DNA of 64,000 nt, from assembly GCA_041659685.1 (NCBI GenBank), contig JBAZXV010000001.1, positions 24,226-88,225 on the forward strand, in the 5' to 3' direction. Of the stretch, positions 3,643 to 44,254 are shown piece after piece. The notes beneath the pieces are model-generated. The model had not been told where the DNA came from. It did not search any database and was given only the letters and a program-made list of their open reading frames with translations. The translations under genes were made by a program, and so were the position numbers. The stretch comes from Parcubacteria group bacterium. Lineage in GTDB: Bacteria > Patescibacteriota > Minisyncoccia > Moranbacterales > UBA11712. Numbering within the stretch: the first letter of the stretch is position 1; each line of letters begins with the position of its first letter.

Positions 3643-4550
3643 TAAATACTCCCAAAATCTCAATTCTTTGCTCAACATACAATCATGAGAAATACATAAG
3701 GCAGACCCTTGAGACTTTTGTGATGCAAAAAACCAATTTCAATTTCGAGGTGCTGGTACATGATGATGCTTCAACAGACGGTACCCAGTCGGTTATTAAG
3801 GAGTTTGAGGAAAAATATCCGGGCATAGTGAAGTCAGTTTTTCAAATAGAAAATCAATATTCGAAGGGAATTCGAAGGGCTATAACGAAATTTCTTTTGC
3901 CTATAGCAGAAGGGGAATATATTCTGCTTTGCAACGGAGATGATTATTTTACCGATGAAAATAAGCTACAAATCCAAGCTGATTTTCTGGATAAAAATCC
4001 GGAATATTCGATGTGTTTTCACCCGACAAGATGGTTTTTTGAAAACAACGAGGAACCAGATTCCATTTTTCCTGAATATAAGGAGGGCGCCAAATTTACA
4101 ACGGAAAAGTTGCTGGAAGGCAATTTTATGAACACGAACGCCGTGATGTATCGGCGCCAAGATTATTCAAGGATTACCAAAAAAAATATTGTTCCAGGAG
4201 ACTGGTATCTGCACTTATATCATGCAAGATTTGGTAGAATCGGATTTATTAATAAAGTGATGGCTGCTTATCGCAGACACGAAAACGGAATCTGGTGGAG
4301 TTCTTATAAAAATCCGGACATGATACTTAAAACTCATGGATCCGCACATCTGACTATGTATTTTGAACTACTAAAATTATATCCCGAAAAAAAATATAGG
4401 GACATAATTTTCGGCAACGTAAGCGGATTATTTCGGCAGCTTGAGAGAATTGACAAAAAAGGGGGAGTCAAAATACTCGAAAGAATAGCTTCAGAATTTC
4501 CAGGCGAGATATTTGATTTTTTGATGTATAATATGAATAATAGGAAATGA
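3639..4550 (+). CDS. family-2 glycosyltransferase (GT-A fold)
   Basis: 'ISILCSTYNHEKYIRQTLETFVMQKTNFNFEVLVHDDASTDGT' is a canonical GT2 N-terminal block; 'LCNGDDYF' DxD-like. GTG start overlapping upstream stop by 4 nt. Confidence 0.8.
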   Translation: MINTPKISILCSTYNHEKYIRQTLETFVMQKTNFNFEVLVHDDASTDGTQSVIKEFEEKYPGIVKSVFQIENQYSKGIRRAITKFLLPIAEGEYILLCNGDDYFTDENKLQIQADFLDKNPEYSMCFHPTRWFFENNEEPDSIFPEYKEGAKFTTEKLLEGNFMNTNAVMYRRQDYSRITKKNIVPGDWYLHLYHARFGRIGFINKVMAAYRRHENGIWWSSYKNPDMILKTHGSAHLTMYFELLKLYPEKKYRDIIFGNVSGLFRQLERIDKKGGVKILERIASEFPGEIFDFLMYNMNNRK

Positions 4551-4614
4551 CATATTTTCTACAAATTTATTGAGTTAAATTAGGTTAATATCAAGATATA
4601 ACAGTGCTAAGTTT

Positions 4615-27365: not shown

Positions 27366-29120
27366 TTATTTAATTTTCCAAATGCCTGCAAGAGAAGTTG
27401 ACTTGATATTCATCGCCAGATCCAAAAAACCTTTCGACGGTTCGTAATAGTTGTTTTCAATAGTGACCGTGTCAAAAGATTTTTTTGCGATCAGGTTATA
27501 ATACCAGGATTTTCTCTCCGCCGGCGGAGCGATGAGATAAATATGCTCGTAGCGCGATTGGTCGATGGTTTCAAGGTCGTCAGCGTTAAAGAAATAAACG
27601 GCGTTCTTTCCATATATCGACGACAGGGGTTCGCTCATAAGGGACCAGCCGCTGTCTGTTGCCATCCGGTCGACCAGGACAAGATCTCGGGAGCCGAATC
27701 TTTCGGATATTTTTTCAATTTGAGGAAGAAGCTCCTTGTTTTCCGGTCTTGTTATGAAGGCGCAGCTCAAAAAGGCATTGGCGGCGGCCAGGGTCAAAAA
27801 AGCGCAGTAAAGAAGCTTTTTATTATGGAAAAACCTGTTCAAGAAATATATCGAGTAAAATATCAGGGCGGGAAAAGCGGCGAAAGCGAAGCGGCGCAGC
27901 ATCCACGGATCGTCGAGAGAAATCATAGGGGAGATGAAATAAAAAAAAGTCGGGAAAGTGATAAATATTGGAATAAATTCCGGTTTTAACCGGCTCTTCT
28001 TAGCGTCCTTTAGGAGCCAGATAATTCCGGCAAAGCCCAGGAAAAGATACGCTAAAATATTATAATTAAAAAATATTCTTATGAGGTGCGGATATGAATT
28101 TGAGGACAGGGCGGAGTCCTGGGCGGAGTTTGGAAGGAACGCTTTAATAATATTTTTGGCGCTGTCGAAAAGGGCGGGGAAATCGAGGAATACGTATACT
28201 ATCAATAGCAGTAAAGCCGAAAAAAAGGTATATTTGAAGAAATTTTTTGGAAGCGAGATTATCTTTTTTTTGCTGAAAATAAACAGGCAGCCGATTGCCA
28301 GCAGGAAAAAGGCGATTCCTTCAATGCGGACAAGGGCGGAAAGGCCGAAAGCGGACAGGGCGACAATAATTTTCAGGGATGAATTTTTTGAGGCCGGATC
28401 CCTGAGGGAAGCAATGAGGAAATAAACTCCTGTCCAGATGAGGAAAAGAGAAGAAATTTCCGTGAGGGTATATTTTGTAAACCAGAGAAACGGGAAAAAG
28501 GCCGCGGCAAGAAGGAATCCGAGGAAAGAGATTTTTTTCGGGAAAAATTCTTCAAGGATGAGCCAAAAGACAGCCAAAAAAAGAAAGAGAAAAGGCAGGT
28601 TGGAATATTGTATTCCCGGCAGTCCGAAGACAGCATAGGCCGCGGCAAGGTATGACGTGTATCCGACTGGAAAACGGGACAGCAGCTGGCCGTTCTTTGT
28701 ATAATCGAATCCCGGATAATTGAGCGATTTGCCGGCTCCGTATTTTTGAAAAAGATCGCGGGAAAGAGGAGTTTCGAATTTCAATTCATGATTTTTGGAG
28801 AGGTTTATGGCCGCGGTGGAAATTGCCCCCTGATCGCGTCCGCCAAAAACAGTGGGAACGGAAAAATAGCCGGTTATGAGACTTGCCGCAAAAGCGGTAA
28901 AAAGAACCAAAATAATCATTTTTCCGGATTCTTTCGCTTTTTTGATTATTAGATTATGGCTTATATAAAGCGAAATAATAACCCCTATGACGATTGACAA
29001 AATGACTGTTTCACGGTAAAATAAACCGATTGCTGAAAACAGCAGGATGAGCCAGCCAAAGGCTAAAAAGAAGATAATGATGCGAAAAAATATGTTTCTG
29101 ATTACGGATTCAAAATTCAT
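27366..29120 (-). CDS. ArnT-like GT-C membrane glycosyltransferase (third paralog of 35381 and 37124)
   Basis: 584 aa polytopic; loop-1 'GGRDQGAIS' corresponds to the 'DQARDA' motif of the tandem paralogs (cf. ArnT 'DEARYA'). Confidence 0.55.
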   Translation of the reverse strand: MNFESVIRNIFFRIIIFFLAFGWLILLFSAIGLFYRETVILSIVIGVIISLYISHNLIIKKAKESGKMIILVLFTAFAASLITGYFSVPTVFGGRDQGAISTAAINLSKNHELKFETPLSRDLFQKYGAGKSLNYPGFDYTKNGQLLSRFPVGYTSYLAAAYAVFGLPGIQYSNLPFLFLFLAVFWLILEEFFPKKISFLGFLLAAAFFPFLWFTKYTLTEISSLFLIWTGVYFLIASLRDPASKNSSLKIIVALSAFGLSALVRIEGIAFFLLAIGCLFIFSKKKIISLPKNFFKYTFFSALLLLIVYVFLDFPALFDSAKNIIKAFLPNSAQDSALSSNSYPHLIRIFFNYNILAYLFLGFAGIIWLLKDAKKSRLKPEFIPIFITFPTFFYFISPMISLDDPWMLRRFAFAAFPALIFYSIYFLNRFFHNKKLLYCAFLTLAAANAFLSCAFITRPENKELLPQIEKISERFGSRDLVLVDRMATDSGWSLMSEPLSSIYGKNAVYFFNADDLETIDQSRYEHIYLIAPPAERKSWYYNLIAKKSFDTVTIENNYYEPSKGFLDLAMNIKSTSLAGIWKIK

Positions 29121-29162
29121 AACTATTTTGCTAAAAACTTATTTTTAGATTACCATAAAAAT

Positions 29163-30176
29163 ATGAGCGACGCCACACAACCCAGCGCGGAAAAAACAGA
29201 TTCCTGCGGCCAAAAATCAGGACCTGGCGCTTTTATGCCGGGCGGCAAGCCGCATCTTTCAGTTATTGTTCCGCTTTATAACGAAGAGGGGAATGTTGGG
29301 GAATTGCACAAAAAAACCGTCGAAGCGCTGAATGATTTGGGCGAGCCTTTTGAAATTTTATTTATCGATGATGGAAGCACGGACAAAACCAATGAGCTCT
29401 GCCGCGTGTTAAATCCGCTGAAACTCATCACCTTTCGCAAAAATTTTGGACAGACAGCGGCCTTCGATGCGGGAATAAAAAATTCCGGCGGGGAAATAAT
29501 CGTCACTATGGACGGCGATCTTCAGAATGATCCGGCGGACATAAAGCTGCTGCTTGAAAAAATGAATGAGGGATATGACGTTGTTTCCGGCTGGAGAAAG
29601 AAAAGGAAAGATCCTGTCATGAAAAACATTTCTTCCCGCGCCGCCAATTTGGCCAGGAAATTTTTAATTGACGACGGAATCCATGACAGCGGATGCAGTC
29701 TGAAAGCCTACCGCCGGGAATGCTTTGAGGATGTGGATCTTTTTGGAGAGATGCATCGCTTTATACCCGCAACACTGAAAGTTCAGGGGTTCAGACTCGC
29801 TGAGGTTCCCGTAAGCCACCATCCGCGTAAATTCGGGGTCACGAAATATAACTGGAGGCGGGGAGTCAAGGGTTTCGTTGACATGATTTCCGTTTGGTTC
29901 TGGAAAAAATATGCCAACCGGCCCCTGCATCTTTTCGGAGCGGGCGGATTGGGGATTTTTTTCTTAGGCATCCTGTCCGGATTGGCTCTTGTTGTTGCTC
30001 GGGTTTTTTATGCCGTGCCGATGTCAAACAAGATTTGGCCTCTTATTGCCATCTTTTTGGTCCTTATGGGCATCCAACTTTTCATTTTCGGGCTTCTGGC
30101 CGATATCGCCGTCAAAAATTATTACAAGGCGCAGGGAAAGATGAATTATAAAATAAAAAATATCATTGAACATTGA
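29163..30176 (+). CDS. GT2 polyprenol-phosphate glycosyltransferase (GtrB/ArnC/Dpm-like) with C-terminal TM helices
   Basis: 'LSVIVPLYNEEGNV', 'ILFIDDGSTDKT', 'TMDGDLQNDP', 'SGCSLKAYRRE'; hydrophobic C-terminus. True start could be the internal ATG at 29235 (MPGGKPHLSVIVP). Confidence 0.85.
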   Translation: MSDATQPSAEKTDSCGQKSGPGAFMPGGKPHLSVIVPLYNEEGNVGELHKKTVEALNDLGEPFEILFIDDGSTDKTNELCRVLNPLKLITFRKNFGQTAAFDAGIKNSGGEIIVTMDGDLQNDPADIKLLLEKMNEGYDVVSGWRKKRKDPVMKNISSRAANLARKFLIDDGIHDSGCSLKAYRRECFEDVDLFGEMHRFIPATLKVQGFRLAEVPVSHHPRKFGVTKYNWRRGVKGFVDMISVWFWKKYANRPLHLFGAGGLGIFFLGILSGLALVVARVFYAVPMSNKIWPLIAIFLVLMGIQLFIFGLLADIAVKNYYKAQGKMNYKIKNIIEH

Positions 30177-30214
30177 CCATCAGTCATTGATCAATGTTTA
30201 ATATTTGATGATTA

Positions 30215-31348
30215 ATGAAGATATTAACCATCGCCGCCACGCCTTTTTTTTCGAATCGGGGCGGACATATGCGGATTTATAACGAAGCGAAATATCTCAA
30301 GAAACTGGGCGCTGATGTGCGCCTTTCGACTTATCATATAGGCGAGGATGTTCCCGGATTTGAAGTCGTGCGCATCCGGGGTCCGAAAAAATATAAAAAA
30401 AATTCTCCCGGCTTTTCTTGGGGAAAGATTTGGCTTGACTGGAAGCTTCTTTTTCTGGTCCGCCGGGAAATAAGGAAATTTCGTCCGGATGCAATCCATG
30501 CGCATTTATATGAAGGATTGGCGGTCGGATATTTGGCGAAAAGATTATCTTTTTCAAAGGTTCCGATTGTTTTTGATCTCCAGGGGAATATCGACGAAGA
30601 GTTCAGGAGTTATAGCCGGAAAAATTCCTTTGCCCGCAAAATTTTTGTTTGGCTTTCGAAAATCGTCATTAAATGGGCCGATAAAATTGTCATCAGCAGT
30701 GAAAATGTTATCTGTAGACGTCCGACGTCTACAATCATTATAAAAGACGGGATCGATTTGGATTTGTTTGAAAATCTTCAGGATTTGTCGGAGGAGGAGC
30801 GAGATAAGATTGAAGAAATAAAAAATTGGTCCGGAGACAAGAAAATATTGGCTTACATCGGCGGATTGAGCGATAATAAGGGGGTCGGGGAATTGCTCGA
30901 GGCGCTTCCGAAGGTCGAACCTTCGGAAAGAAATTCCTGGAAGCTTTTGCTCGGCGGGTATGGAAGCGACGAAGTGAAATATAAAGAGTTTATCGAGGAA
31001 AATAACTTAGAAGAGCGCGTGTATTTTTCAGGACCGATAAGCTATTTCTCACTGCCGCATTATCTGGCGCTTGCCGATGCGGGAATTGATCCAAAAAAAG
31101 GTTCGGCTGAATCAAGCGGAAAAATAGCCAATTTAATGGCCGCGGGATTGCCGATTATCTGTTTTGAAAATGAGTTTAACCGCTCGCGGATTGGTGAAAA
31201 AGGGATATACTTGAAAGATATGAGTGAATTAGGCGAGAAGCTAGATAATATTCAAGATACCGGGAAAATAAAATATAACATAGATGATTTGAGCGAAGAA
31301 AAAGAAGTCCGGAAATTGTTAGAAATATTCCAATCGTTAACAAAATAA
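30215..31348 (+). CDS. GT4-like (GT-B) glycosyltransferase
   Basis: 377 aa; 'KILTIAATPFFSNRGGHMRIYNEAKYL'; C-terminal 'LPHYLALADAGIDPKKGSAESSGKIANLMAAGLPIICFE'. Confidence 0.7.
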   Translation: MKILTIAATPFFSNRGGHMRIYNEAKYLKKLGADVRLSTYHIGEDVPGFEVVRIRGPKKYKKNSPGFSWGKIWLDWKLLFLVRREIRKFRPDAIHAHLYEGLAVGYLAKRLSFSKVPIVFDLQGNIDEEFRSYSRKNSFARKIFVWLSKIVIKWADKIVISSENVICRRPTSTIIIKDGIDLDLFENLQDLSEEERDKIEEIKNWSGDKKILAYIGGLSDNKGVGELLEALPKVEPSERNSWKLLLGGYGSDEVKYKEFIEENNLEERVYFSGPISYFSLPHYLALADAGIDPKKGSAESSGKIANLMAAGLPIICFENEFNRSRIGEKGIYLKDMSELGEKLDNIQDTGKIKYNIDDLSEEKEVRKLLEIFQSLTK

Positions 31349-31394
31349 ATTTTCATCAGTAAATTAGCTTACTGATTCAGAAATAATATAAAAA

Positions 31395-31625
31395 ATGACA
31401 AAGAAGATTACCTGCAAAACGGGGCTCAAGAAGAACGTAATCAATAAAAAAGTTTTCGATCGGGAAGCGGCCCTTTGCCGAATGCTTTCAAAGAAAAACA
31501 AGAGTAAATGCGGTTGGGGAAAATGCAAAGATTGCGGAGTTGTTCCATTGCTAATAAAGTTACACGAAGGGAAATTGATTGAAGGAAAAAACAACATCAA
31601 TTCAGCGCGAAAAAAATATTTGTAA
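31395..31625 (+). CDS. small basic Cys-rich protein (76 aa), possible zinc ribbon
   Basis: Lys-rich; Cys at 7, 28, 39, 44, 47 including 'CGWGKCKDCG'. ATG start; stops 10 nt before next ATG. The opposite-strand ORF 31364..31600 looks like junk. Confidence 0.35.
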   Translation: MTKKITCKTGLKKNVINKKVFDREAALCRMLSKKNKSKCGWGKCKDCGVVPLLIKLHEGKLIEGKNNINSARKKYL

Positions 31626-31635
31626 TATCAAATTC

Positions 31636-32430
31636 ATGGAAGGAGAAAACCATATTTTTGACTGGACAGATAAAATTGACCCGAAACTCTTTTCGAAAAA
31701 TTATCCGGATAAAAGCGAAAGGAAACATGAGCTGAAGATACTGGGACTGCCGACATACAAAGAAATTATCGTAAATTTGGAGGAGTTCAACTCGGATCCG
31801 GATGTTTTTTTGAACCAGGTTGCTTTTGCAGGCCGCCCAGCTGAGAATTATTATTTTACTATATTTCCAAATTCAATTGCGCAGAATGAAGGCGGACTAA
31901 GCACAGGCAGGCAGGGATTTAGCAAGGATCAGTTGATTAACTTCGTAGGGGAGCAAAAAATTAATTTAGCGAACCACACAATAATGATAGAACCCCACCA
32001 CAAGAAAGAATATTCGGGAACAATTCATGTAGGCTCGAACGGGGAAATATGCGGCGAATTTATCTCGGGAAAGGAACAAAGCGCTATTTCACGGGGAGAA
32101 GTTAATCCCGAATTCAGAATTGAGGGAAGATTAGAAAACCTTGAGGCTCTTCATTCTCGCTCTCCAGAAAATCCCGAAAATACAACTAACATGCAAAATA
32201 TTTTCGAAGGATCAGTCAGAAGAGTTGGGGAGGCAGTCAAGAAAAAATTTGGAAGGAGAGTGCCAACTGATCTGGACTTAGATTTCGAATTATTTTACAT
32301 TTCACCCGGAGAGAATCAGGAATTGCAGCCGATATTTTTTGATATCCTTGATCATTCGGCTGCCAAAAAAGATATTGCGATGAGAAGCAGGTTTAACGTG
32401 GCTGATTGGAGAAATCGAACTTCCGAATAA
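31636..32430 (+). CDS. hypothetical protein (264 aa), no recognisable domain
   Basis: Track ORF starts at TTG 31579; first ATG at 31636 (MEGENHIFDW). Soluble, no TM. Confidence 0.55.
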   Translation: MEGENHIFDWTDKIDPKLFSKNYPDKSERKHELKILGLPTYKEIIVNLEEFNSDPDVFLNQVAFAGRPAENYYFTIFPNSIAQNEGGLSTGRQGFSKDQLINFVGEQKINLANHTIMIEPHHKKEYSGTIHVGSNGEICGEFISGKEQSAISRGEVNPEFRIEGRLENLEALHSRSPENPENTTNMQNIFEGSVRRVGEAVKKKFGRRVPTDLDLDFELFYISPGENQELQPIFFDILDHSAAKKDIAMRSRFNVADWRNRTSE

Positions 32431-32450
32431 AATGTTGATTATAGAAATAT

Positions 32451-33038
32451 ATGCAAATCGAATACGAGGCGACGTTTGAAAATATAGACAAAGGTGAAAT
32501 AAAGGAGCGGCTTGAAAAGGCGGGAGCAAAGCTTGTCCGGCCGGAATTTATGCAAAAAAGAGTAACGCTTCAGCTTCCGAAGGGGCAGGATGCTCCGAAT
32601 AAATGGCTTCGAGTCAGGGATGAGGGCGACAGGATAACCATGACCTTCAAGCATTTCGACGGAGACAATATCGATAATCAAAAAGAGTTGTTAATCGTTG
32701 TGGACAGTTTTGAGAAAACGGTGGAATTCTTATTGCATATCGGCTGCATTGAAAAATCTTATCAGGAATCGAGGAGAGAACTCTGGACGCTGGACGGCGC
32801 GGAGATTACGATCGACGAGTGGCCTTTTCTTGATCCGTTTGTGGAGGTTGAGGGAAAAAACGAGAAAGAGGTGAGGGATATTTCCGAAAAATTGGGGTTC
32901 AATTGGGAAAACGCGCTTTTTTGCGCGGTTGGGCATCAATATGAGAGAAAATACGGCGTAGCGGAGGATTATTTCAACAGTAAAATTTCGAAGGTTACGT
33001 TCGATATGGAGAACCCGTTTACGGATATAAAGGCCTAG
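32451..33038 (+). CDS. CYTH-domain protein (CyaB / triphosphate-tunnel metalloenzyme-like)
   Basis: 195 aa; N-terminal 'MQIEYEATFE' matches the E-x-E-x-(K) start of CYTH/CyaB ('YEVEFKF' in Aeromonas CyaB); size fits. Confidence 0.5.
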   Translation: MQIEYEATFENIDKGEIKERLEKAGAKLVRPEFMQKRVTLQLPKGQDAPNKWLRVRDEGDRITMTFKHFDGDNIDNQKELLIVVDSFEKTVEFLLHIGCIEKSYQESRRELWTLDGAEITIDEWPFLDPFVEVEGKNEKEVRDISEKLGFNWENALFCAVGHQYERKYGVAEDYFNSKISKVTFDMENPFTDIKA

Positions 33039-33087
33039 AAAATTCAGTGCGGTAAGGCGGCATACCGCGCTGATAAATATATCATTT

Positions 33088-34272
33088 ATGAAATCGTGGG
33101 CTGTAAAACTGGGAAAAGGAATCGGCGCAATGAAGCGCGACGGAATATGGCGGGGCGGAAAACGCTCAGTCCGGTCTTTTTTAAAATTATTCCGACGGGT
33201 CGGGTCGGGAGATATTCTTTTTATTTCCAGCGGAGTGGGAGACAGCGCCAAATACCGCTCCAATCGGCAAGCGGAAGAACTTTCTCTTCATGGGTTCAAA
33301 TGTTCGGTTACTGTCCAGGATAATCCGCTTCTTCCGAAATATGCGGATCGCTTCAACATCTTCATCTTTCAAAAAACAATATATTCAAAAACAGTCGCGA
33401 GATTAATTGAAAAAATAAAAAAACAGGAAAAGGAAATTATTTTTGAAACTGATGATTTGGTTTTTGATCCGGAATATGTCCGCCAAATGGATTTTTTCGA
33501 AAAACTCAATACCCTTGAAAAGAAACAGTATGAAACAGGAGTGGGGAGTGAAATACTTCGGGACGATTATGTCAAAAATTGCGTGACAACGACTTCTTTT
33601 CTGGCCGAAAAGCTCAAAAAATACGGAAAGCGGGTTTATATCTCGAAAAACAAGCTTTCAAATTATGATTCTGGAATAGCGGAAGAATTATACAACAAGA
33701 AGATCGATAATACCGGCAAAAATCCGGCTTTGGTCAAAATCGGATATTTTTCCGGAACGGCCAGTCATGATAAAGATTTTGAGGCGGCGCGGGAGGCGCT
33801 GGTCCGTATTCTTGAGAAATTTCCGGATGTCGAACTGAATCTTTTCGGGCCGCTTGAAGCAAGCGGCATTTATAAAAGATTCGGCCATCGGATCAAAAAG
33901 CACCCGTTTGTTTCCTGGGAGAAACATCTTGAAAATATCTCAAAAGTTGACATAAATATCGCTCCGCTTGAGATTGGGAACCCTTTTTGCGAGTCGAAGT
34001 CAGAGCTGAAATTCATTGAAGCTGGAATAGTCGGCGTGCCGACGGTTGCTTCGACGACAGGAACGTTTCGGGAGACGATTGAAGACGGAATTGATGGTTT
34101 TGTCGCTTTTAACGAAAATGAGTGGGTTGAAAAACTTGAACGGCTGATCGGCGATAAAAAATTCAGGGAAGAAATGGGAAGCAAGGCAAGGGAGAAAGTG
34201 CTGAAAAATTATACGAATAAAATCAGCTGCAACGAAGAATATTATGATTTTCTGCGATCAAAAAATAGATAG
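33088..34272 (+). CDS. GT1/GT4-like (GT-B) glycosyltransferase
   Basis: C-terminal 'ESKSELKFIEAGIVGVPTVASTTGTFRETIEDGIDGFV' = E-x7-E donor-binding motif; 394 aa. Confidence 0.7.
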   Translation: MKSWAVKLGKGIGAMKRDGIWRGGKRSVRSFLKLFRRVGSGDILFISSGVGDSAKYRSNRQAEELSLHGFKCSVTVQDNPLLPKYADRFNIFIFQKTIYSKTVARLIEKIKKQEKEIIFETDDLVFDPEYVRQMDFFEKLNTLEKKQYETGVGSEILRDDYVKNCVTTTSFLAEKLKKYGKRVYISKNKLSNYDSGIAEELYNKKIDNTGKNPALVKIGYFSGTASHDKDFEAAREALVRILEKFPDVELNLFGPLEASGIYKRFGHRIKKHPFVSWEKHLENISKVDINIAPLEIGNPFCESKSELKFIEAGIVGVPTVASTTGTFRETIEDGIDGFVAFNENEWVEKLERLIGDKKFREEMGSKAREKVLKNYTNKISCNEEYYDFLRSKNR

Positions 34273-34273
34273 T

Positions 34274-34319
34274 CAAATACTTCCACCATTGTAATGGTGG
34301 AAGTATTTGGCCGTTTTTA
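34274..34319 (+). terminator. rho-independent terminator (17-bp perfect stem plus T-tract)
   Basis: 'caaatacttccaccatt gt aatggtggaagtatttg' followed by 'gccgttttt'; begins 2 nt after the stop codon at 34272. Confidence 0.75.
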
Positions 34320-34338
34320 ACTTTTGTGGGTTTGGTTT

Positions 34339-35334
34339 ATGAGAAAAGTTGCCATTGTTATCGTGAATTGGAACGGGAAGAAATATCTTAAGGATTGTTT
34401 TGAATCGCTAAAGGTGCAAACGGAAAAAAACTTCAGGGTGATTTTTGTCGACAACGGATCGGAGGACGGTTCGGTTGATTTTTTGAAAAATAATTATTCG
34501 AGCTTCGGAGGCCCGGATGCGGACATTATCCGGCTGGGGAAAAATACAGGTTTTTGTTTCGGCTTCAACGCCGGAATCAAGAAGGCGCTTGGATATGAAA
34601 ATATCAGGCATGTGATTGTCCTTAATAACGACACGAAGCTTGATGAAAAATATATTGAAGAAATATCAGCCTGCGCCGAAAGGCATCCGGATGCCGGTTC
34701 GGTCCAGCCGAAAGTGATAAATTTCTTCGATAAAGATAAGATCGACTGCGCCGGGATTTATATAAGCCGAGACGGAACTGCGCATAACAGAGGATACGGC
34801 GAAGATGAGAAAAAATATTCGGAAGAAAAAGAGATTTTCGGGGCAAACGGGACGGCCTCGCTCTTTACCCGCCAGGCACTTGAAAAAACATCCCTTTCGG
34901 AGCATAATTACTTCGACAATGGCTATTTCGCGTTTTATGAAGATGTAGATTTGGCCTGGCGATTAAAAACTGCCGGTTTTAAATCTTATTATTGCCCGGG
35001 CGCGGTCGTGTCGCATGTCCACAGCGGAACGGCAGGGAAGGCTTCTCTTATGAAGGCGTATTATCTGCATCGGAATTATTTTTTTACGGTCATCAAGAAC
35101 TATCCCTGCGGAAAAGTAGTAAAAACGCTTGTTTGGCGTTTTTTGAGTTATGTTCAGCTCATTTTCAATGTTTTCCGAAGAGAGAAAAGGGAAGCGGAGT
35201 TCGTAAAGGGGCACAGCAAAGGAGAGGTGGCGGTCGTGATTCTGGAGGCCTGGGGGAGTGTTATTTATAATCTTCCGGAACTGATAAGGAAAAGAAGGTT
35301 AATCAAAAAGCAAAGAGAAAAAGGCGATTTGTAA
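34339..35334 (+). CDS. family-2 glycosyltransferase
   Basis: Track start is TTG (34324); ATG at 34339 'MRKVAIVIVNWNGKKYLKDCFESL...FRVIFVDNGSEDGS'; 'YEDVDLAWR'. Confidence 0.8.
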   Translation: MRKVAIVIVNWNGKKYLKDCFESLKVQTEKNFRVIFVDNGSEDGSVDFLKNNYSSFGGPDADIIRLGKNTGFCFGFNAGIKKALGYENIRHVIVLNNDTKLDEKYIEEISACAERHPDAGSVQPKVINFFDKDKIDCAGIYISRDGTAHNRGYGEDEKKYSEEKEIFGANGTASLFTRQALEKTSLSEHNYFDNGYFAFYEDVDLAWRLKTAGFKSYYCPGAVVSHVHSGTAGKASLMKAYYLHRNYFFTVIKNYPCGKVVKTLVWRFLSYVQLIFNVFRREKREAEFVKGHSKGEVAVVILEAWGSVIYNLPELIRKRRLIKKQREKGDL

Positions 35335-35380
35335 TTTGGGTTTTTCAAGTTACTGATTGATAACAACGAAATGAATACTC

Positions 35381-37039
35381 TTGAAATTTAAGCCGGACTG
35401 GAAAATAGCATTATTTTTATTTATAATCGCTCTTGCGGTCTTTTTGCGCGTCTATCATTTTTCCGACTGGCTCTTTTTCAAAATGGATCAGGCGCGGGAT
35501 GCATCGACGATACAGCAGGCCTTTGAATTCGGTCCGGGATGGCTTCCCCTGCTCGGCCCGAAAGCGGGCGGAACGGAGCTTAATCTTGGGCCGGCTTTTT
35601 ATTATTTTCAATATATTTCCGCCGTTCTTTTTCAGAATGCGAATCCGGCCACCCTGGCCTTTCCGGATCTTTTATTCGGAATTCTCTCGATCCCGCTTTT
35701 TTATTTTTTTCTCAGGAAATATTTTTCCCGCGATTGGTCGATGGTGCTGGCAAGCCTATATGCCGTTTGTTTTCTCGGGATCCAGTATTCGAGGTTTTCC
35801 TGGAATCCGAACGGGCTCGTTTTCTTCAATCTCCTGTTCTTTTTGTCGCTTCTCAATGTTTTCGACGAAAAGATAAAATATCGGCTCCGCTGGATAATTT
35901 CAGCAGGGGTTTCATTCGCCGTCTCGACACAGCTTCATTTTCTCTCTTTTCTGACACTGCCGGTGATAACATTGGTGTTTATCGCCCTCAACTGGAAAGA
36001 GGCGAGGAAAGTTTTGAACTGGAAGCATGCCGCTTTGTTTATTTCAATCGTGGCTGTGGTTTATCTTCCGGTAATCCTGAATGAGATTGTTTCGAAAGGG
36101 GAAAATACAACCGAATTCATTAAAGCCGTCAGAGAAAAACCCTCAGCGCACAGTTTTTTGAAAAACGTTAACCGGGATCTGCGTTATTGGGGGCAAAACT
36201 GGTTTTTAATTCTTACCAGCTGGATAAGCCGGAAAGGGGGAACGAACGGAATGATTTTGGCTTGGCTCGGCGCGATTATTCCGGCTCTTTTCATCGGCTT
36301 CAATTTTTTCCGAAGGGAAGAAAACCGGGTAAAGAAAAAATTTATTTTAATAACGCTGCTCTGGTTTATAATTTATCTTCTGGCTTATATTCCGATCGCT
36401 TATCAAATTCGGCCGAGATTTTTTCTCCCCTTACTTTCTCTTCCGTTCATATATATTGGATATACCGCCTTGTTTTTCTGGGAAAAAAAGAAAGTATACT
36501 GGAAAATTATTGTTGCTGCCGGCCTGCTGATAATCTTTTTTGGAAACATAGCGGGAACCTTTGCCTGGTTTAAAGAGATTGAGGGCGCTCAGAAAAAAGG
36601 GATATATCCCTGGCGGACAATTATTTTAAAAGCAAAAGACGGAATTGTTCTTTGGCATCTCGAAAAGGCGGCCGATTACATGCAGTCCAATTGCGCAGGA
36701 AACAAAATATATTATGACGTATCCTCCGAATACAAACGCCCGGTGAAATATTTGCTTGGTTTGCGGGGCATCGACGCCGAACCGATCGGAAGCCTTGAGT
36801 CCGGAAACAGGGAATCCTGCGCGTATGATCTTAAATTAACCCGATCTAAAAATAAATCTCCCGGAAAAGAACTGGAGGCGGAATTTCAGGCAGGGGAGGC
36901 GGAAAAAATAGGCGCTTTAAGCGTGTATAAGCTGAATGTGAGGGAAGAATTTTTCGGACAAGCGCTTTCAACTCATAAGAAAGGATCGGAAGAAAATGAA
37001 AAAACAAATCGCATATTTTGGAAAGATATCGTAAGATAG
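35381..37039 (+). CDS. ArnT-like GT-C membrane glycosyltransferase, tandem paralog A
   Basis: 552 aa polytopic; 'VYHFSDWLFFKMDQARDA' (cf. ArnT 'DEARYA'); TTG start with no in-frame ATG upstream. Confidence 0.6.
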   Translation: MKFKPDWKIALFLFIIALAVFLRVYHFSDWLFFKMDQARDASTIQQAFEFGPGWLPLLGPKAGGTELNLGPAFYYFQYISAVLFQNANPATLAFPDLLFGILSIPLFYFFLRKYFSRDWSMVLASLYAVCFLGIQYSRFSWNPNGLVFFNLLFFLSLLNVFDEKIKYRLRWIISAGVSFAVSTQLHFLSFLTLPVITLVFIALNWKEARKVLNWKHAALFISIVAVVYLPVILNEIVSKGENTTEFIKAVREKPSAHSFLKNVNRDLRYWGQNWFLILTSWISRKGGTNGMILAWLGAIIPALFIGFNFFRREENRVKKKFILITLLWFIIYLLAYIPIAYQIRPRFFLPLLSLPFIYIGYTALFFWEKKKVYWKIIVAAGLLIIFFGNIAGTFAWFKEIEGAQKKGIYPWRTIILKAKDGIVLWHLEKAADYMQSNCAGNKIYYDVSSEYKRPVKYLLGLRGIDAEPIGSLESGNRESCAYDLKLTRSKNKSPGKELEAEFQAGEAEKIGALSVYKLNVREEFFGQALSTHKKGSEENEKTNRIFWKDIVR

Positions 37040-39744: not shown

Positions 39745-42081
39745 ATGATTAATTGTCAATTATTCCGCCAAGCAATGTTTAATTTGAGGAAAGAAAAATT
39801 ATATATAATATTATTCTACGCCGTACTGACGATAGTTCTTACCTGGCCTTTTGCTTCACGTTTCTTTTCATCGGTTCCAAGTCTCGGTTCGGACACGATG
39901 CAGGTTATCGGAGTGGCGGGGGAAAGGGCAAATGTCATCAAGGACCTTGGTTTTTGGAAAGGCACATTCGAACTGCTGAAGCGTTCGGAATTCAACGTCG
40001 TCACGCTTTATTCTTATTTTGAGCTTATTTTCGGCCGTATAGCCGGTTATAATCTGCTTTTTTTCGCCTCTTTTGTCCTTTCCGGATTCGGAATGTATCT
40101 TTTGGCTTTTTATTTTACGAAAAACAAGCCGGCATCACTTATTGCCGGAATTATTTTCGCCTTTTCTCCGTTCCACGTGCATAATTCCTTGAGCACGAAT
40201 GTCGGGACGATGCATCAGGAATGGCTGCCTTTTTTTGCGCTGTACCTTTTTAAATTTTTTGATTCCGCGAAAGGAAGCGATAGCGGCTCGAAAGAAACAG
40301 ATAATAGCCTCCCCGGCGGCCAAGCTCTCCCCGGCGGAAATGGCAGTTTGAGGCTCAAAAACTTCCTGCTGGCAGGCTTGTTTTTGGGACTCATCGCTTT
40401 CACCGAGCATCAGCTCCTTGCCTTCACTTTGATCTTTATTTTATTTTTTCTTGTTTATAAGATTTTTACGCAACCGAAAATATTCATTAAAGGAAAACTA
40501 TGGCTCTATGTGATTGTGAGCGTTGCGATTCTTTCGGCGGTGTCCTTTCTTATGTTCCGTTCGCTTTTTGAAATCGCCTTTTCAGGAAATAATTATCTCG
40601 ATCCGGGATTCAAGGCGGCGGTCAAATACTCAAATGACGCGCTGGCAATTATTATTCCCCCCAGTTTTCATTCCTTTTGGCCGGATGCCTTTTCTCACAT
40701 CCGGGAAACTTTCAGGAGGCGAACCGACAGCTCATTTTCAATCTATGCCGGATTTTCGGTGCTTTTGTTGTCCATCCTTGGCATGGCGGGAATGCGATCC
40801 CTTCGAAAGCGTCGGATTCCAACGAGGGGGATATGGTTTTGGTTTGCAACGGCACTCGGTTTTTATATCCTTTCGCTTGGGCCGCATCTCAACTATATGG
40901 GGGAAATCAATCCGCCGGTTAAGATGCCGTATCTTCTTGCCTATAACTATCTTCCGTTCTTCAATAATATCCGGACAGTGGGGAGGCTGTTTATATATTC
41001 GATACTCTCGTTTTCAATCCTTGCGGCATGGGGAAGCGCGTATCTGATTTCAAAAGCCTCGCCTAAAAATGAAGAGGAGAAGGAAAAATTGGCGAAGGAT
41101 GATAACGCAAAAGAAAGGCGAACTGATCTTTTTGGCGTCAATCTCAAGCAACAAATCATTGTGTCTTTGATCAGCCTCGTTGTTATTGTCGAGTATCTTG
41201 CCGTCCCATTCAAGACGAATACCCTTTTGCACTCGTCTTTTTACGATAAATTGGGGCAGGACAAGGAGAATTACAGCGTCCTTGAAATTCCGGGAAGCAC
41301 GAATTATGATTTTGCTTCGCGCGATCTGGTCTGGAAGAGCATTCACAGGAAAAATACGGTCAACAGCTATGACTTTGCCCGGGAAATCGACGAAAACGAC
41401 GTCTTTCAAAAAGGGACTCCCATCGTACGGACTCTTCTGTATGATATTTCCAATGAGGACAGCGGAAACGACCGTGACATTATGAAAAATTCGTACTATA
41501 ACATTTCAAGCGAAATATTAAATTACTACAGCATTCGCTACGTGATTCTCGACAAGGAGGGCCTTAAGGGCAATCCGGAAAAGGGCGATCTGAATATGCT
41601 TTATCCCGCCAAAGCCTATATAAGCAATGTGATAAAATGCGCTGATGAATATGAAGATGAATATCTTTATGCCTGCCGGATTGATCAAACCGACGTTCCC
41701 GATCACATGTTTCTCGCGATGGATTACAGCAACAAGCATTGGGTTGGGAAAAGCAAATCTAAAAACGGAATTCAAAGATGGGCGGAAAACGGGGCCGGAG
41801 TAAAACTTGTCAACATGACGAATCAAATTCAAAGCAGCAAGCTTAATTTTGATGCGAAAATATCAAAGCCGCTTCGGCTCAAAGTGTTTTTTAACGGAGC
41901 GGAGATATATAATCAGTACCTGACGTATCTTGGAAAAAAGCAAACGATTTCCGCAGATCTTCCAAGCATCAATCCGGGAGAAAACGATGTCACTTTTGGC
42001 GTTTATGCGGCTGACGGGACCGAGATTAAAACGGATAAAAAATCAGACTCCGTGGTTATTTATCAGGTGGAAGTAGAATAG
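39745..42081 (+). CDS. large polytopic membrane protein (778 aa) with extracytoplasmic C-terminal domain; possibly YfhO/GT-C-like, family uncertain
   Basis: About 10 TM in the first ~450 aa, then a soluble ~330-aa tail. No diagnostic motif recognised. Confidence 0.5.
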   Translation: MINCQLFRQAMFNLRKEKLYIILFYAVLTIVLTWPFASRFFSSVPSLGSDTMQVIGVAGERANVIKDLGFWKGTFELLKRSEFNVVTLYSYFELIFGRIAGYNLLFFASFVLSGFGMYLLAFYFTKNKPASLIAGIIFAFSPFHVHNSLSTNVGTMHQEWLPFFALYLFKFFDSAKGSDSGSKETDNSLPGGQALPGGNGSLRLKNFLLAGLFLGLIAFTEHQLLAFTLIFILFFLVYKIFTQPKIFIKGKLWLYVIVSVAILSAVSFLMFRSLFEIAFSGNNYLDPGFKAAVKYSNDALAIIIPPSFHSFWPDAFSHIRETFRRRTDSSFSIYAGFSVLLLSILGMAGMRSLRKRRIPTRGIWFWFATALGFYILSLGPHLNYMGEINPPVKMPYLLAYNYLPFFNNIRTVGRLFIYSILSFSILAAWGSAYLISKASPKNEEEKEKLAKDDNAKERRTDLFGVNLKQQIIVSLISLVVIVEYLAVPFKTNTLLHSSFYDKLGQDKENYSVLEIPGSTNYDFASRDLVWKSIHRKNTVNSYDFAREIDENDVFQKGTPIVRTLLYDISNEDSGNDRDIMKNSYYNISSEILNYYSIRYVILDKEGLKGNPEKGDLNMLYPAKAYISNVIKCADEYEDEYLYACRIDQTDVPDHMFLAMDYSNKHWVGKSKSKNGIQRWAENGAGVKLVNMTNQIQSSKLNFDAKISKPLRLKVFFNGAEIYNQYLTYLGKKQTISADLPSINPGENDVTFGVYAADGTEIKTDKKSDSVVIYQVEVE

Positions 42082-42126: not shown

Positions 42127-42169
42127 CAGGCGCGATTTGGCGAAAATGCTTTTGGCGTTTTTTTTTGTT
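42127..42169 (+). terminator. weak hairpin followed by T9 tract, putative terminator of 39745..42081
   Basis: 'ggcgaaaatgcttttggcg' imperfect stem then 'ttttttttt'. Confidence 0.35.
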
Positions 42170-42197
42170 TGCCGGAAACATTCGAAATTGGTATAAT
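42169..42197 (+). promoter_or_regulatory. sigma-70-like promoter TTGCCG-N17-TATAAT placed for a leaderless ligT transcript
   Basis: -35 'ttgccg' 42169-42174; 17-nt spacer; -10 'tataat' 42192-42197. The ATG at 42204 lies 7 nt downstream of the -10, at the expected transcription start site. Confidence 0.45.
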
Positions 42198-42203
42198 GTG
42201 ATT

Positions 42204-42758
42204 ATGCAAAAACGCTTATTTCTTGGCATTTCTGTTCCGGAGAACGTAAAAAAGCGACTTTTTAGGCTGGTTGAAAATAAATTTCAGAGCTTGCCGGTAA
42301 AATGGGCGCGGCCTGAAAATATGCATATTACCTTAAGTTTTCTGGGGCATATTCAGGAAGAAAACATTCCGGCAATATGCGACTCAATAAGGGAATCTCT
42401 GGGAAATATCGGCGTGTTCGAGTTGGATTTTGAGAAAATTGAATATGGACCCGGCCAAGATTCCAAGAGGATGATATGGGCAACCGGAAAGCGGAGCGAG
42501 GAGTTGGAAGAGTTGAAATTCCGCCTGGAATCTGCTTTGGGCGATCTCAGGAAAGAAAAGAAAAAATTCACACCTCACATAACCCTGGGGAGAATAAGAA
42601 GAGGCGAGTGGCTGAGACTGGAAAAGGAGCCGGATATTTTTGAAGAATATAAATTTAATGTTCCAGTTTCATCGGTTGAGCTTCTCGAAAGTAAATCTGA
42701 AAAAGGGAAACGGGTTTATTACACTCTCGAATCATTTCCGCTAAACATTAAAAATTGA
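42204..42758 (+). CDS. 2H phosphoesterase (LigT/ThpR-like, 2'-5' RNA ligase family)
   Basis: Two H-x-T/S-x motifs 'HITLSFLG' and 'HITLGRI' at the expected spacing; 184 aa from ATG at 42204 (track starts at an upstream ATG, 42165). Confidence 0.75.
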   Translation: MQKRLFLGISVPENVKKRLFRLVENKFQSLPVKWARPENMHITLSFLGHIQEENIPAICDSIRESLGNIGVFELDFEKIEYGPGQDSKRMIWATGKRSEELEELKFRLESALGDLRKEKKKFTPHITLGRIRRGEWLRLEKEPDIFEEYKFNVPVSSVELLESKSEKGKRVYYTLESFPLNIKN

Positions 42759-43501
42759 TGGAAGCGAACTGCGGAAAAAATAAACATAGTCCTAAAGTTC
42801 TGGGCATTAAATTGAATAATCTCTCCGGAGAGGAAATCAACCGGTGGCTCTGTGATATTCTGAGCGGTCCGCCCCGGCAAAAATTTGTCGTAACGCTTAA
42901 TCCGGAAATAATTCTCGAAGGGCGCCGAGATGAGGTTTACGGAAATATTTTGAATAATGCCGATCTCTGCGTATGTGACGGCATAGGCGTAAAATTAATT
43001 TCTCTCCTTAAAGGAGTGAAAGTGAAGGCCAGAAAGACGGGAGTCGAAATAACTGAATTCTTGCTGGCTGCCGCCAAAAAAGAGGGCAGGAGCGTGCTGA
43101 TTATTGCCAAGAAGAACGGCTTGAGCGATCCGGAAGAGATAAGGAAAGCGGTGGAGGAGAGGTATGGTGTCAGAGCGGAAGCTGCCTGCTTTGATGACAA
43201 TTTGCTAAACAGCCAAAAAGCGAAAAATTCGGAAATAATCCTTGTTAATTTTGGCGCGCCCCAGCAGGAAAAATTTATTATCAAATACCGCTCAAATTTT
43301 CCAAACGCCAAAATCCTTGTCGGAGTGGGTGGAGCGATCGATTTTTTGACCGGGAAAACGGTACGGGCGCCGCACTGGATGAGAAAGGCGGGACTTGAGT
43401 GGTTTTGGAGATTTATGAAGCAGCCAAGGAGGATAAAGAGGATTGCGAGCGCCGTTCTGGTGTTTCCAGCAAAGGCATTAATCAATTTCAGAGAAAAATA
43501 A
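42758..43501 (+). CDS. WecB/TagA/CpsF-family (GT26) glycosyltransferase
   Basis: 'NFGAPQQEKFI', 'VGVGGAIDFLTGKTVRAPHWMRKAGLEWFWRFMKQPRRIKR' are GT26 hallmarks. ATG overlaps the ligT stop (TGATG). Confidence 0.8.
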   Translation: MEANCGKNKHSPKVLGIKLNNLSGEEINRWLCDILSGPPRQKFVVTLNPEIILEGRRDEVYGNILNNADLCVCDGIGVKLISLLKGVKVKARKTGVEITEFLLAAAKKEGRSVLIIAKKNGLSDPEEIRKAVEERYGVRAEAACFDDNLLNSQKAKNSEIILVNFGAPQQEKFIIKYRSNFPNAKILVGVGGAIDFLTGKTVRAPHWMRKAGLEWFWRFMKQPRRIKRIASAVLVFPAKALINFREK

Positions 43502-43504
43502 TCG

Positions 43505-44254
43505 ATGGTAAAAATACTGCTTAATAAAAGAGTTCTTCTTCTTGCGGCTTCTCTGTTTTTCGGATTATTGGTGGTTTGGACGGGAGCGTTTTTGGGTTGG
43601 TCTCCTTTTTCGGCCAACCTAACATTTGTTGTTTTGCTTATTTTTTTTCTGGGAATTATGGTCTCGAGCCAGCAATATGAAGAGGATGCAATATCGAAGG
43701 TCGAAAGAATAATCAGCTCTTTCCTTTTTTCATATATTTTATTTTTTCGTTTGCTTTACGCTCCTTTGAGCAAATTCTTCTTCGGGTATCTCATAAGAGA
43801 AACATCATTTCTGGCGGACACACTGGCTCTTATTTTGTTTCTCTTGTTCTTTTTTCTTTTCGGGACGGCTTTTTTGGTGCTCAACAGCTATTCGCGCCTT
43901 GGATTTTTGGGTCATTGGAAATTTTTCAATAATCCGGCCGCTTTTTTTATTCTCAGATTTTTCTTTGTGGCTTTTTTGGGAATATTTGCTATGATTTATA
44001 TAAGAAATTCATTTTTTTCACTCAAAAATTCATATTATATAAACAAAATTATCCCTCCATCGACTTGCGGCTGGACCTATAGCCGCTTCTCCGGCGTTTT
44101 GTCGCTGGATCGCAGTGTCAGCGGCGAAAATATCTGCCTCCTTCTTTTTGCGAAGGATCGGAATGATCTGAAATATTGCAGTCTCATCCTGGATGAAGAA
44201 GTGAAAAGCAAATGCATTGAAAATGTTTCTTCGGGATCAAAAAAAACGGACTAG
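43505..44254 (+). CDS. hypothetical polytopic membrane protein
   Basis: 249 aa, about 6 TM, Cys-containing C-terminal tail; no motif recognised. Confidence 0.5.
   Translation: MVKILLNKRVLLLAASLFFGLLVVWTGAFLGWSPFSANLTFVVLLIFFLGIMVSSQQYEEDAISKVERIISSFLFSYILFFRLLYAPLSKFFFGYLIRETSFLADTLALILFLLFFFLFGTAFLVLNSYSRLGFLGHWKFFNNPAAFFILRFFFVAFLGIFAMIYIRNSFFSLKNSYYINKIIPPSTCGWTYSRFSGVLSLDRSVSGENICLLLFAKDRNDLKYCSLILDEEVKSKCIENVSSGSKKTD

Follow-up and report, generated by a model that had tools for sequence, protein, structure and literature searches.

The three genes at 31395–33038 are, on balance and with moderate confidence, a conserved module of the CPR (Patescibacteria) that handles nucleotide or other phosphoanhydride compounds, and not a regulator of the glycan genes among which they lie. 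The trio, carried by a Parcubacteria (CPR) MAG, recurs in distant relatives beside nucleotide-cleaning enzymes, and so looks like a nucleotide- or phosphate-handling unit rather than a switch for sugar genes. The features of the locus within the window, that is, the whole stretch of 64,000 nt that was analysed, are the following:

29163–30176, GT2 glycosyltransferase, in the flank of the trio
30215–31348, GT4 glycosyltransferase, in the flank of the trio
31337–31365, + strand, weak sigma-70-like promoter match (TTAACA-17-TAAATT, 9 of 12 positions matching), 30 nt upstream of the small gene
31395–31625, + strand, small basic Cys4 protein of 76 aa, of a CPR-wide family without a curated model
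31636–32430, + strand, orphan protein of predicted ATP-grasp fold (the middle protein), 264 aa from ATG
32451–33038, + strand, putative CYTH/triphosphate-tunnel-type phosphohydrolase of 195 aa (Pfam CYTH), of a CPR subfamily with ExExT for ExExK
33088–34272, GT1 glycosyltransferase, in the flank of the trio
34272–34311, + strand, strong hairpin with an 18-bp stem and a 4-nt loop, then CGTTTTTAAC, 3' of the GT1 gene
34324–35334, GT2 glycosyltransferase, in the flank of the trio
35381–37039, PMT_2, in the flank of the trio

All three ORFs are genuine genes under purifying selection; relative to L001, dN/dS is 0.07 in the small gene and 0.16 in the middle one. They are closely spaced on one strand, as an earlier note on this DNA had described, the trio genes being separated by 10 and 20 nt from one another and by 46 and 49 nt from the glycosyltransferase genes on both sides. 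An alternative TTG start at 31579 would extend the middle protein to 283 aa and overlap the small gene. The glycosyltransferase run is less uniform than it had been taken to be, as a LigT-like phosphoesterase at 42165–42758 also interrupts it. The + strand from 31348 to 33088 showed no terminator-like site, and the hairpin 3' of the GT1 gene may mark the end of a transcription unit comprising the small, middle, CYTH and GT1 genes. The sigma-70-like match might act as a promoter, although it carries little weight because 21 such sites were found in the scanned region, against 13.8 expected. An Rfam scan of 29000–36000 gave no match. There are no flanking repeats around the trio that point to a mobile insertion, tblastn against phage genomes found no homologues of it, the PADLOC anti-phage defence profiles do not match it, and its sole PHROGs match is not significant (E 0.08).

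The trio stays linked across deep divergence while its order changes. In addition to the window's lineage, where the order is small-middle-CYTH, all three families occur together in two other deep lineages, each with a different order, and HMM searches confirmed all three in these loci. The first of these has DCD-CYTH-middle-small-MazG-SHMT in L043 and ThyX-like-HD-NUDIX-DCD-CYTH-HD-middle-small-MazG-SHMT in L042, with middle proteins 37–38% identical to that of the window; the second (L044 and L045) has NUDIX-middle-CYTH-small, with a middle protein 26% identical. Wherever both the middle and the small gene are seen, which is in three lineages, they adjoin or have a single gene between them, and the trio genes appear to be single-copy wherever the trio occurs. 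Adjacent small and CYTH genes recur in five further independent contig lineages; where the two occur as a pair without the middle gene they are separated by 9–21 nt or overlap by 10 nt. The small gene and the CYTH gene are therefore genuinely paired, as the earlier note supposed, and its suggestion that the trio be sought as a unit in other genomes has been borne out.

The same comparisons bear on the position of the trio in the window. Pair-only loci include GT4-small-CYTH-GT1-GT2 in L051/L052, syntenic with the window at 57–75% identity, and small-CYTH-GT1 with the 10-nt overlap in L055, as well as small-CYTH-GluRS in L053/L054. Small-CYTH thus occupies this slot in the window's nearest relatives too, where the middle gene is missing, and we take the location in the glycosyltransferase array to be an inherited synteny of one lineage. 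In L024, from the Moranbacteria, the small gene is again preceded by GT4 and GT1 orthologues (GT1 at 51% identity).

Outside the window's clade, the surroundings are of another kind. House-cleaning neighbourhoods (NUDIX, MazG, HD, HIT, Ham1/ITPase, dCTP deaminase/dUTPase) are recurrent beside all three families, although none of the three trio proteins belongs to a house-cleaning family and no such hydrolase adjoins the trio within the window itself. In the two other deep lineages, the neighbours of the trio are NUDIX, HD, MazG, dCTP deaminase, ThyX and SHMT. Further members of the middle family lie directly 3' of a NUDIX gene (L046, L047 and L049) or a HIT gene (L050), and the L047 member, which has ample flanks, has neither a CYTH nor a small gene nearby; a narrower alignment of the middle family, used as the query for the locus search, returned two loci. 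The CYTH gene of L056 is surrounded by Ham1, NUDIX, a pyrophosphatase-like gene, HIT and HAD, while that of L058 lies inside a heat-shock operon. At 38 GTDB loci, the two positions on either side of the small gene hold 133 genes in all, and the Pfam families most often represented there are NUDIX (ten), HD (four, plus two YfbR-like), HIT (three), Ham1 (two) and pyrimidine 5'-nucleotidase (two). NUDIX genes are, however, not significantly enriched beside the small gene relative to genes further off in the same loci (6/141 versus 5/265, p=0.14), and our argument accordingly does not rest on NUDIX enrichment. As a counterpoint to a module, CPR genomes may merely bundle small housekeeping genes.

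The CYTH protein matches Pfam CYTH (PF01928; E 6.8e-7, 29.7 bits against a gathering cut-off of 23.2), has weak sequence matches in the PDB (1yem and SaTTM, 7ns8) and belongs to a large CPR subfamily, with homologues in more than 2,160 clusters. One of these (P0137) looks like a fusion of CYTH with part of a thymidylate kinase. The signature start that the earlier note recognized is present only in part: the N-terminus reads I-E-Y-E-A-T (E4-Y-E6-A-T8), so that the two Glu residues are kept and Thr stands in the Lys position of ExExK. T8 is retained in 118 of 120 close relatives (98%), whereas the more distant L042/L043 orthologues carry EYEVK; K14, close by, shows 99% conservation. No fewer than 90% of the 120 relatives keep W52-L-R54-V-R56, and the same holds for E132-V-E134; W52 is also present in L042/L043, and E4, E6 and the stretch IDEWPFLEP are conserved as well. 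The protein thus has in common with the triphosphate tunnel metalloenzymes (TTM triphosphatases of bacteria and archaea, and thiamine triphosphatase, ThTPase) the N-terminal E-x-E, the basic WxRxR strand and the C-terminal ExE, but differs from them in the hallmark Lys, and, as judged by eye without a structural alignment, in having no clear DxY upstream of W52. Since the canonical Lys is absent, the chemistry may differ. The recurrent pairing with a small Cys4 protein was not found in the CYTH literature searched.

Our motif classification follows Vogt et al. 2021 (PMC8233210), in whose scheme C-terminal ExE is the signature of two-metal hydrolases and an aromatic residue before RxR, the stacking motif W/YxRxR, is assigned to ThTPases and plant TTM1/2. 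Class IV adenylyl cyclases (CyaB, TIGR00318), which share the superfamily and a similar length, are discriminated by an HF motif four residues before ExExK, a small residue for the first Arg of xRxR, and ExA in place of ExE (PMC8233210). In the window's protein there is no room for HF, because just M-Q-I precede E4; R54, the Arg whose presence prevents binding in the cyclase orientation, is kept, and E134 makes the C-terminal motif ExE. By these published rules the motifs indicate a two-metal phosphohydrolase, and not a class IV cyclase.

For the middle protein, structure prediction indicates a two-lobed ATP-grasp fold that most resembles the ATP-binding component of split dikinases, and identity to the structural matches is 10–14%. 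Sequence searches are silent: the single protein gave nothing significant against Pfam, NCBIfam, PADLOC, PHROGs or PDB, the family profile found nothing among PDB sequences, and none of 38 family members matched a curated ATP-grasp family (PPDK_N, RimK, ATP-grasp_x and others), even at E<=5. G128 is invariant and E141 at least 90% conserved, as are E218 and D236 on the adjacent predicted strands 215–222 and 231–239. These residues are candidates for the ATP/Mg2+ ligands of the superfamily, an acidic pair on neighbouring C-lobe strands and a Gly-rich loop. Like HpeI (PMC12167813), the protein stands alone as a polypeptide and consists of little more than the ATP-grasp lobes. However, it is shorter than its counterparts in two-component dikinases of the HpeHI/PpsAB type (264 versus about 330 aa) and differs from them in lacking a PPDK_N Pfam match. 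A swivel phospho-His domain partner was not seen in any of the middle-gene neighbourhoods inspected, and its neighbours are nucleotide hydrolases rather than genes of aromatic catabolism.

The small protein is lysine-rich (18 Lys in 76 residues, pI 10.1), as had been noted, with five Cys including the CGWGKCKDCG cluster, and its family comprises 62 homologue clusters across the CPR. Four Cys are invariant (Cx10Cx4Cx2C), a pattern with a single CxxC knuckle. The earlier comparison with a zinc ribbon is not upheld, as the two CxxC knuckles on beta-hairpins are absent; the predicted structure is predominantly helical and matches no solved fold, which argues against a classical zinc ribbon. Searches against Pfam, NCBIfam, PADLOC, PHROGs and PDB, the last with both the single sequence and the profile, gave nothing significant. 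No His is invariant, relatives having Tyr, Phe or Gly in place of H57, and we reject a role as a phospho-His carrier on that ground. At 40 GTDB loci found through the small gene there is neither a CYTH nor a middle gene within 6 kb, so that the small protein is independent of either, and at one locus it forms an uninterrupted ORF with NUDIX.

Several other explanations of the trio deserve consideration. The small-CYTH pair or the whole trio could be accessory to the neighbouring glycosyltransferases, with the ATP-grasp protein acting, for example, as an amide ligase on a sugar or lipid-linked intermediate, or with phosphate by-products being removed. ATP-grasp amide ligases that act on capsule sugars do exist; the trio shares its strand and its close spacing with the glycosyltransferase genes on both sides, no terminator precedes the GT1 stop codon, and the slot between GT4 and GT1 is kept in L051/L052 and L055, with a similar arrangement in L024. 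Gene order at 57–75% identity can, however, persist without a functional tie. The middle gene lies among glycosyltransferases in the window's lineage and in none of the six other lineages of its family, glycosyltransferase neighbours were found at just one of the 40 GTDB small-gene loci, and the CYTH gene elsewhere is set among nucleotide hydrolases or chaperones. We consider such a role distinctly unlikely. Control of the glycan genes, one of the possibilities that the earlier note offered, is not supported, since nucleotide-hydrolase and dTMP-pathway genes adjoin the trio and its parts outside the window's clade. That note had also allowed that the small ORF might not be conserved and that the 264-aa protein might be a sugar-modifying enzyme, but the former is strongly conserved and the latter has no link to sugar enzymes outside the window's lineage. 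Even less can be said for a cyclic-nucleotide signalling cassette with the small protein as the regulator of a class IV cyclase, a reading to which we assign very little probability: some sources label close homologues 'adenylate cyclase class 2' and there is a weak match to TIGR00318 (cyaB), yet at 38.7 bits it falls below the equivalog cut-off of 57.95, all three discriminators of these cyclases fail, and none of the loci inspected has a cNMP-binding or effector gene adjoining the trio. It is also unlikely that the trio is no functional unit at all, but three unrelated housekeeping genes brought together by the frequent reshuffling of CPR genomes. The highly variable contexts of the small and CYTH genes would fit this, as would the non-significant NUDIX control; on the other hand, co-occurrence in three lineages and three orders, together with the tight spacing of small and CYTH, points to selection for linkage and not to drift.

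Finally, the trio could be a protein-modification system, in which the small Cys4 protein serves as substrate for ligation or phosphorylation by the ATP-grasp enzyme, as in RimK-S6, LysX-LysW or the graspetide ligases, and the CYTH protein acts on the phosphate products. The target might then be TCKTGLKKN, an N-terminal segment of the small protein that is at least 90% conserved yet modelled with low confidence (pLDDT 55). The constant proximity of the middle and small genes is consistent with such a system, as is a family member (P0081) fused to a RimJ-type GNAT domain. However, unlike the targets of LysX/ArgX, RimK and graspetide ligases, the small protein is no zinc ribbon and has no acidic C-terminal acceptor tail (EDWGE-like), its C-terminus (...SARKKYL) being basic and variable, unlike that of a LysW-type carrier. 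Its full-length conservation at such low dN/dS is equally unlike a RiPP precursor. It is, moreover, kept in many genomes without a middle gene nearby and pairs with CYTH alone. The best structural matches of the middle protein are of the dikinase and acyl-CoA-synthetase type, not of the RimK type, and sequence profiles do not connect it to RimK-type enzymes (hhalign probability against RimK-like ATP-grasp, 1.2%). We therefore give this alternative a small chance. Of what the earlier note had read into the three genes, the unit and the pairing are supported, and the trio is conserved as a set; the cyclase or signalling function, the control of glycan genes and the zinc ribbon are not supported.

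In the nucleotide- or phosphoanhydride-handling module that we favour, the ATP-grasp enzyme would draw on ATP for the phosphorylation or ligation of a metabolite that is nucleotide-like or carries polyphosphate, and the CYTH protein would hydrolyse a triphosphate-bearing substrate or by-product, whose aromatic or base moiety could stack on the conserved Trp. With its four Cys the small protein would coordinate a metal, either Zn or an Fe-S cluster, and, being basic, may partner the two acidic enzymes (pI 4.9 and 5.4), primarily CYTH. A more far-reaching possibility, which we regard as improbable, is that the three proteins are the subunits of a hitherto undescribed enzyme system, specific to the CPR, with nucleotide polyphosphates as its substrates. 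This might be a split dikinase- or ligase-like machine in which the metal-bearing small protein replaces the swivel-His carrier or is indispensable as a cofactor subunit, and it would close a gap in a reduced nucleotide-salvage or dTMP pathway.

Genomes of the CPR/Patescibacteria are very small and contain many conserved genes without an assigned role, and nucleotide management in these bacteria is poorly understood. The current analysis gives a first structural and contextual handle on two families without a curated model, one with a predicted ATP-grasp fold and the other a basic protein of putative Cys4 metal-binding type. It also suggests that a common CPR CYTH protein, often labelled 'adenylate cyclase', is of hydrolase type with an altered hallmark motif. 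The linkage of the trio points towards concrete biochemical tests, and its history is a warning that in CPR genomes function should not be read from a position in a glycosyltransferase array.

The earlier note's description of three open reading frames with glycosyltransferase (GT) genes on both sides holds, the gene order being GT2, GT4, the trio, GT1, GT2 and PMT_2 (Pfam):

31395–31625, small basic Cys4 protein, 76 aa
31636–32430, middle protein, 264 aa from its ATG
32451–33038, CYTH protein, 195 aa

The genes of the trio lie 10 and 20 nt apart, with 46 and 49 nt between them and the neighbouring genes. An alternative TTG at 31579 would lengthen the middle protein to 283 aa; conservation among homologues begins at MEGE. 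The source MAG belongs to the Parcubacteria group, and identical public proteins are tagged WC831_00230 and WC831_00235. All three are real genes, as follows from dN/dS values of 0.07 (small) and 0.16 (middle) against the nearest relative, the locus L001, and from 62 homologue clusters for the small protein and more than 2,160 for CYTH.

The promoter-like site upstream of the small gene is a weak match. The first convincing plus-strand terminator-like site for the region, a perfect 18-bp palindromic hairpin at 34272–34311 that is terminator-like on both strands, lies directly 3' of the GT1 stop, thus co-transcription of the trio with GT1 is possible. Nothing suggests a mobile insertion, as no flanking repeats, defence or phage profile matches or Rfam elements were found at the trio, and GC is only slightly reduced, in the Lys-rich part. 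Elsewhere in the array, a LigT-like 2',3'-cyclic phosphodiesterase/2'-5' RNA ligase family gene (42165–42758; Pfam LigT_PEase, E = 2.5e-20), a second nucleotide/RNA-end enzyme, overlaps by 4 nt the start of a WecG-type glycosyltransferase (42755–43501). Large ORFs of the GT region at 27366–29120 (−), 39745–42081 (+) and 43505–44254 (+) have no Pfam match at the thresholds used; among these, a 584-aa protein resembles a polytopic membrane protein.

Seen from the middle gene, the trio is a unit, and the check for its conservation in other genomes that the earlier note called for comes out positive from that side. Two close middle homologues (67% and 59% identical) come from short contigs (about 1 kb). 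In L001 the gene before the middle one was verified as a small-family member (89% identical), and on the second contig a 78-aa gene, known by size only, occupies that place. More distant loci read DCD-CYTH-middle-small-MazG-SHMT (L043) and ThyX-like-HD-NUDIX-DCD-CYTH-HD-middle-small-MazG-SHMT (L042), with middle genes 37–38% identical to the window's, and NUDIX-middle-CYTH-small (L044 and L045; 26% identical). Family HMMs confirm every small, middle and CYTH assignment in the trio loci. That the linkage persists in three deep lineages, despite three different orders, is the mark of selection for co-location. Further members of the middle family directly follow NUDIX (L046, L047, L049) or HIT (L050); both CYTH and small genes are absent near that of L047 despite ample flanks. 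Two genes upstream of the L047 member, with the NUDIX gene in between, lies a fusion of an inorganic pyrophosphatase domain with a class I SAM methyltransferase (4319–5536).

In the closest relatives of the window's small gene (71–75% identical), CYTH comes directly after it and the middle gene is missing. These loci read GT4-small-CYTH-GT1-GT2 (L051/L052, syntenic with the window at 57–75% identity), small-CYTH-GT1 with a 10-nt overlap (L055) and small-CYTH-GluRS (L053/L054). Neither CYTH nor a middle gene lies within 6 kb of the small gene in any of the 40 GTDB species representatives found through it. Among the 133 genes within two positions of the small gene in GTDB loci, NUDIX is commonest (10/133), followed by HD, HIT, Ham1 and 5'-nucleotidase; since the within-locus control for NUDIX was not significant (p = 0.14), we regard this neighbourhood as suggestive only.

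The CYTH protein scores 29.7 bits with Pfam CYTH, above the cut-off of 23.2, but 38.7 bits with the cyaB equivalog, below the cut-off of 57.95. Across 120 aligned close relatives the N-terminus reads M-x-I-E-Y-E-A-T-F, so that the ExE part of the proposed CYTH signature stands (E4-Y-E6) and its Lys does not, Thr occupying that position of ExExK in 118 sequences; K14 is 99% conserved. Three motifs discriminate class IV adenylyl cyclases (AC-IV) from hydrolase-type CYTH proteins (Vogt et al. 2021, PMC8233210): AC-IV carries an HF motif and a C-terminal ExA where two-metal hydrolases have ExE, the Arg of WxRxR blocks the cyclase binding orientation, and an aromatic residue before RxR is otherwise typical of thiamine triphosphatases and plant TTM1/2. 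Here, just three residues precede E4, leaving no room for HF; W52-x-R54-x-R56 retains the blocking Arg, and E132-x-E134 has the two-metal form. These motifs class the protein as a triphosphate-tunnel enzyme of hydrolase type whose first motif is atypical, and the cyclase or signalling role suggested earlier is effectively excluded.

CYTH was also sampled on its own. In a complete Moraniibacteriota genome (L056) its surroundings are Ham1, NUDIX, HIT, HAD and a pyrophosphatase-like gene. On a Falkowbacteria contig (L058, 3219–9561) it sits inside a heat-shock operon, hrcA-grpE-hsp20-CYTH-dnaK-...-dnaJ, a context predicted by none of the explanations offered. The 289-aa cluster representative P0137, from a 1.6-kb contig, appears to join a partial thymidylate kinase (residues 7–94) to CYTH, which could be a merged gene call.

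Neither the middle protein nor any of 37 relatives matches a Pfam/NCBIfam family even at E ≤ 5, and PDB sequence and profile searches gave no match. Exhaustive HMMER searching of 1.84 billion cluster representatives yielded only 36 relatives at E ≤ 1e-3, mostly of 230–270 aa, one fused to a GNAT domain. With the predicted structure, Foldseek returned 190 matches at E ≤ 1e-3, and all 50 among the matches listed are ATP-grasp enzymes. In the family, G128 never varies and conservation reaches at least 90% at E141, E218 and D236; the last two, on adjacent predicted strands, may be placed where ATP-grasp Mg ligands sit. In HpeHI-type dikinases the ATP-grasp component requires a swivel-His partner (PMC12167813). 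None was seen near any middle-family member, and no His is invariant in the small protein, whose reading as a phospho-His carrier is rejected.

The small-protein family is widespread in Patescibacteria-type contigs. Its core shows striking conservation, with F21, E24, C28, C39, W41, G42, C44, C47 and K55 never varying, and in the N-terminal TCKTGLKKN segment conservation reaches at least 90%. The zinc ribbon proposed earlier is rejected, as the four invariant Cys surround one knuckle only; a Zn or Fe-S site is nevertheless what one would naturally expect from them. At L008, an uninterrupted 262-aa ORF (5425–6213) combines a NUDIX domain (Pfam E = 1.8e-12) with a complete small domain; the fusion, seen in one genome, could be genuine or an artefact of assembly. 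The Cys4 core is apparently joined to a weak CHAP/NlpC-P60-like C-terminal region at L038 (6052–6708) and to a membrane-like N-terminal region at L033 (5644–6210), which may be artefacts of longest-ORF choice. Two paralogues lie within a few kb at L007 (3924–4091, 5995–6249) and L012 (1721–1948, 5989–6213). Several small-gene contigs (L002–L041) are titled Gammaproteobacteria, Clostridia, Hyphomicrobium, Bdellovibrionales, Saccharibacteria or Pacearchaeota MAGs, being either mis-binned CPR contigs or evidence of a distribution wider than Parcubacteria.

CYTH and ATP-grasp proteins are known kinds. The literature searched appears to contain no description of the CPR CYTH subfamily with ExExT and WxRxR, of the ATP-grasp family that is an orphan by sequence, of the Cys4 family, which lacks a curated model, or of the repeated linkage between all three.

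A link to glycans, to which the GT genes on both sides might point, is a minor rival; the GT-array position is common only to the window's clade and one Moranbacteria locus, where the GT1 orthologue is again followed by the small gene, and we read it as inherited synteny. Modification of the small protein by its ATP-grasp neighbour is likewise a minor rival. Folds and motifs, conservation, linkage and neighbour families are observed; the interpretation with the best support is a housekeeping module for nucleotides or phosphoanhydrides, made up of a hydrolase-type CYTH, the small basic Cys4 protein that recurs as its partner and, in some lineages only, the ATP-grasp orphan. In such a module, the ATP-grasp protein would be an active enzyme that uses ATP to phosphorylate or ligate a nucleotide-like or polyphosphate substrate, CYTH would remove a triphosphate-bearing substrate or by-product, and the small protein (pI 10.1) would bind metal and associate with the acidic middle and CYTH enzymes (pI 5.4 and 4.9).
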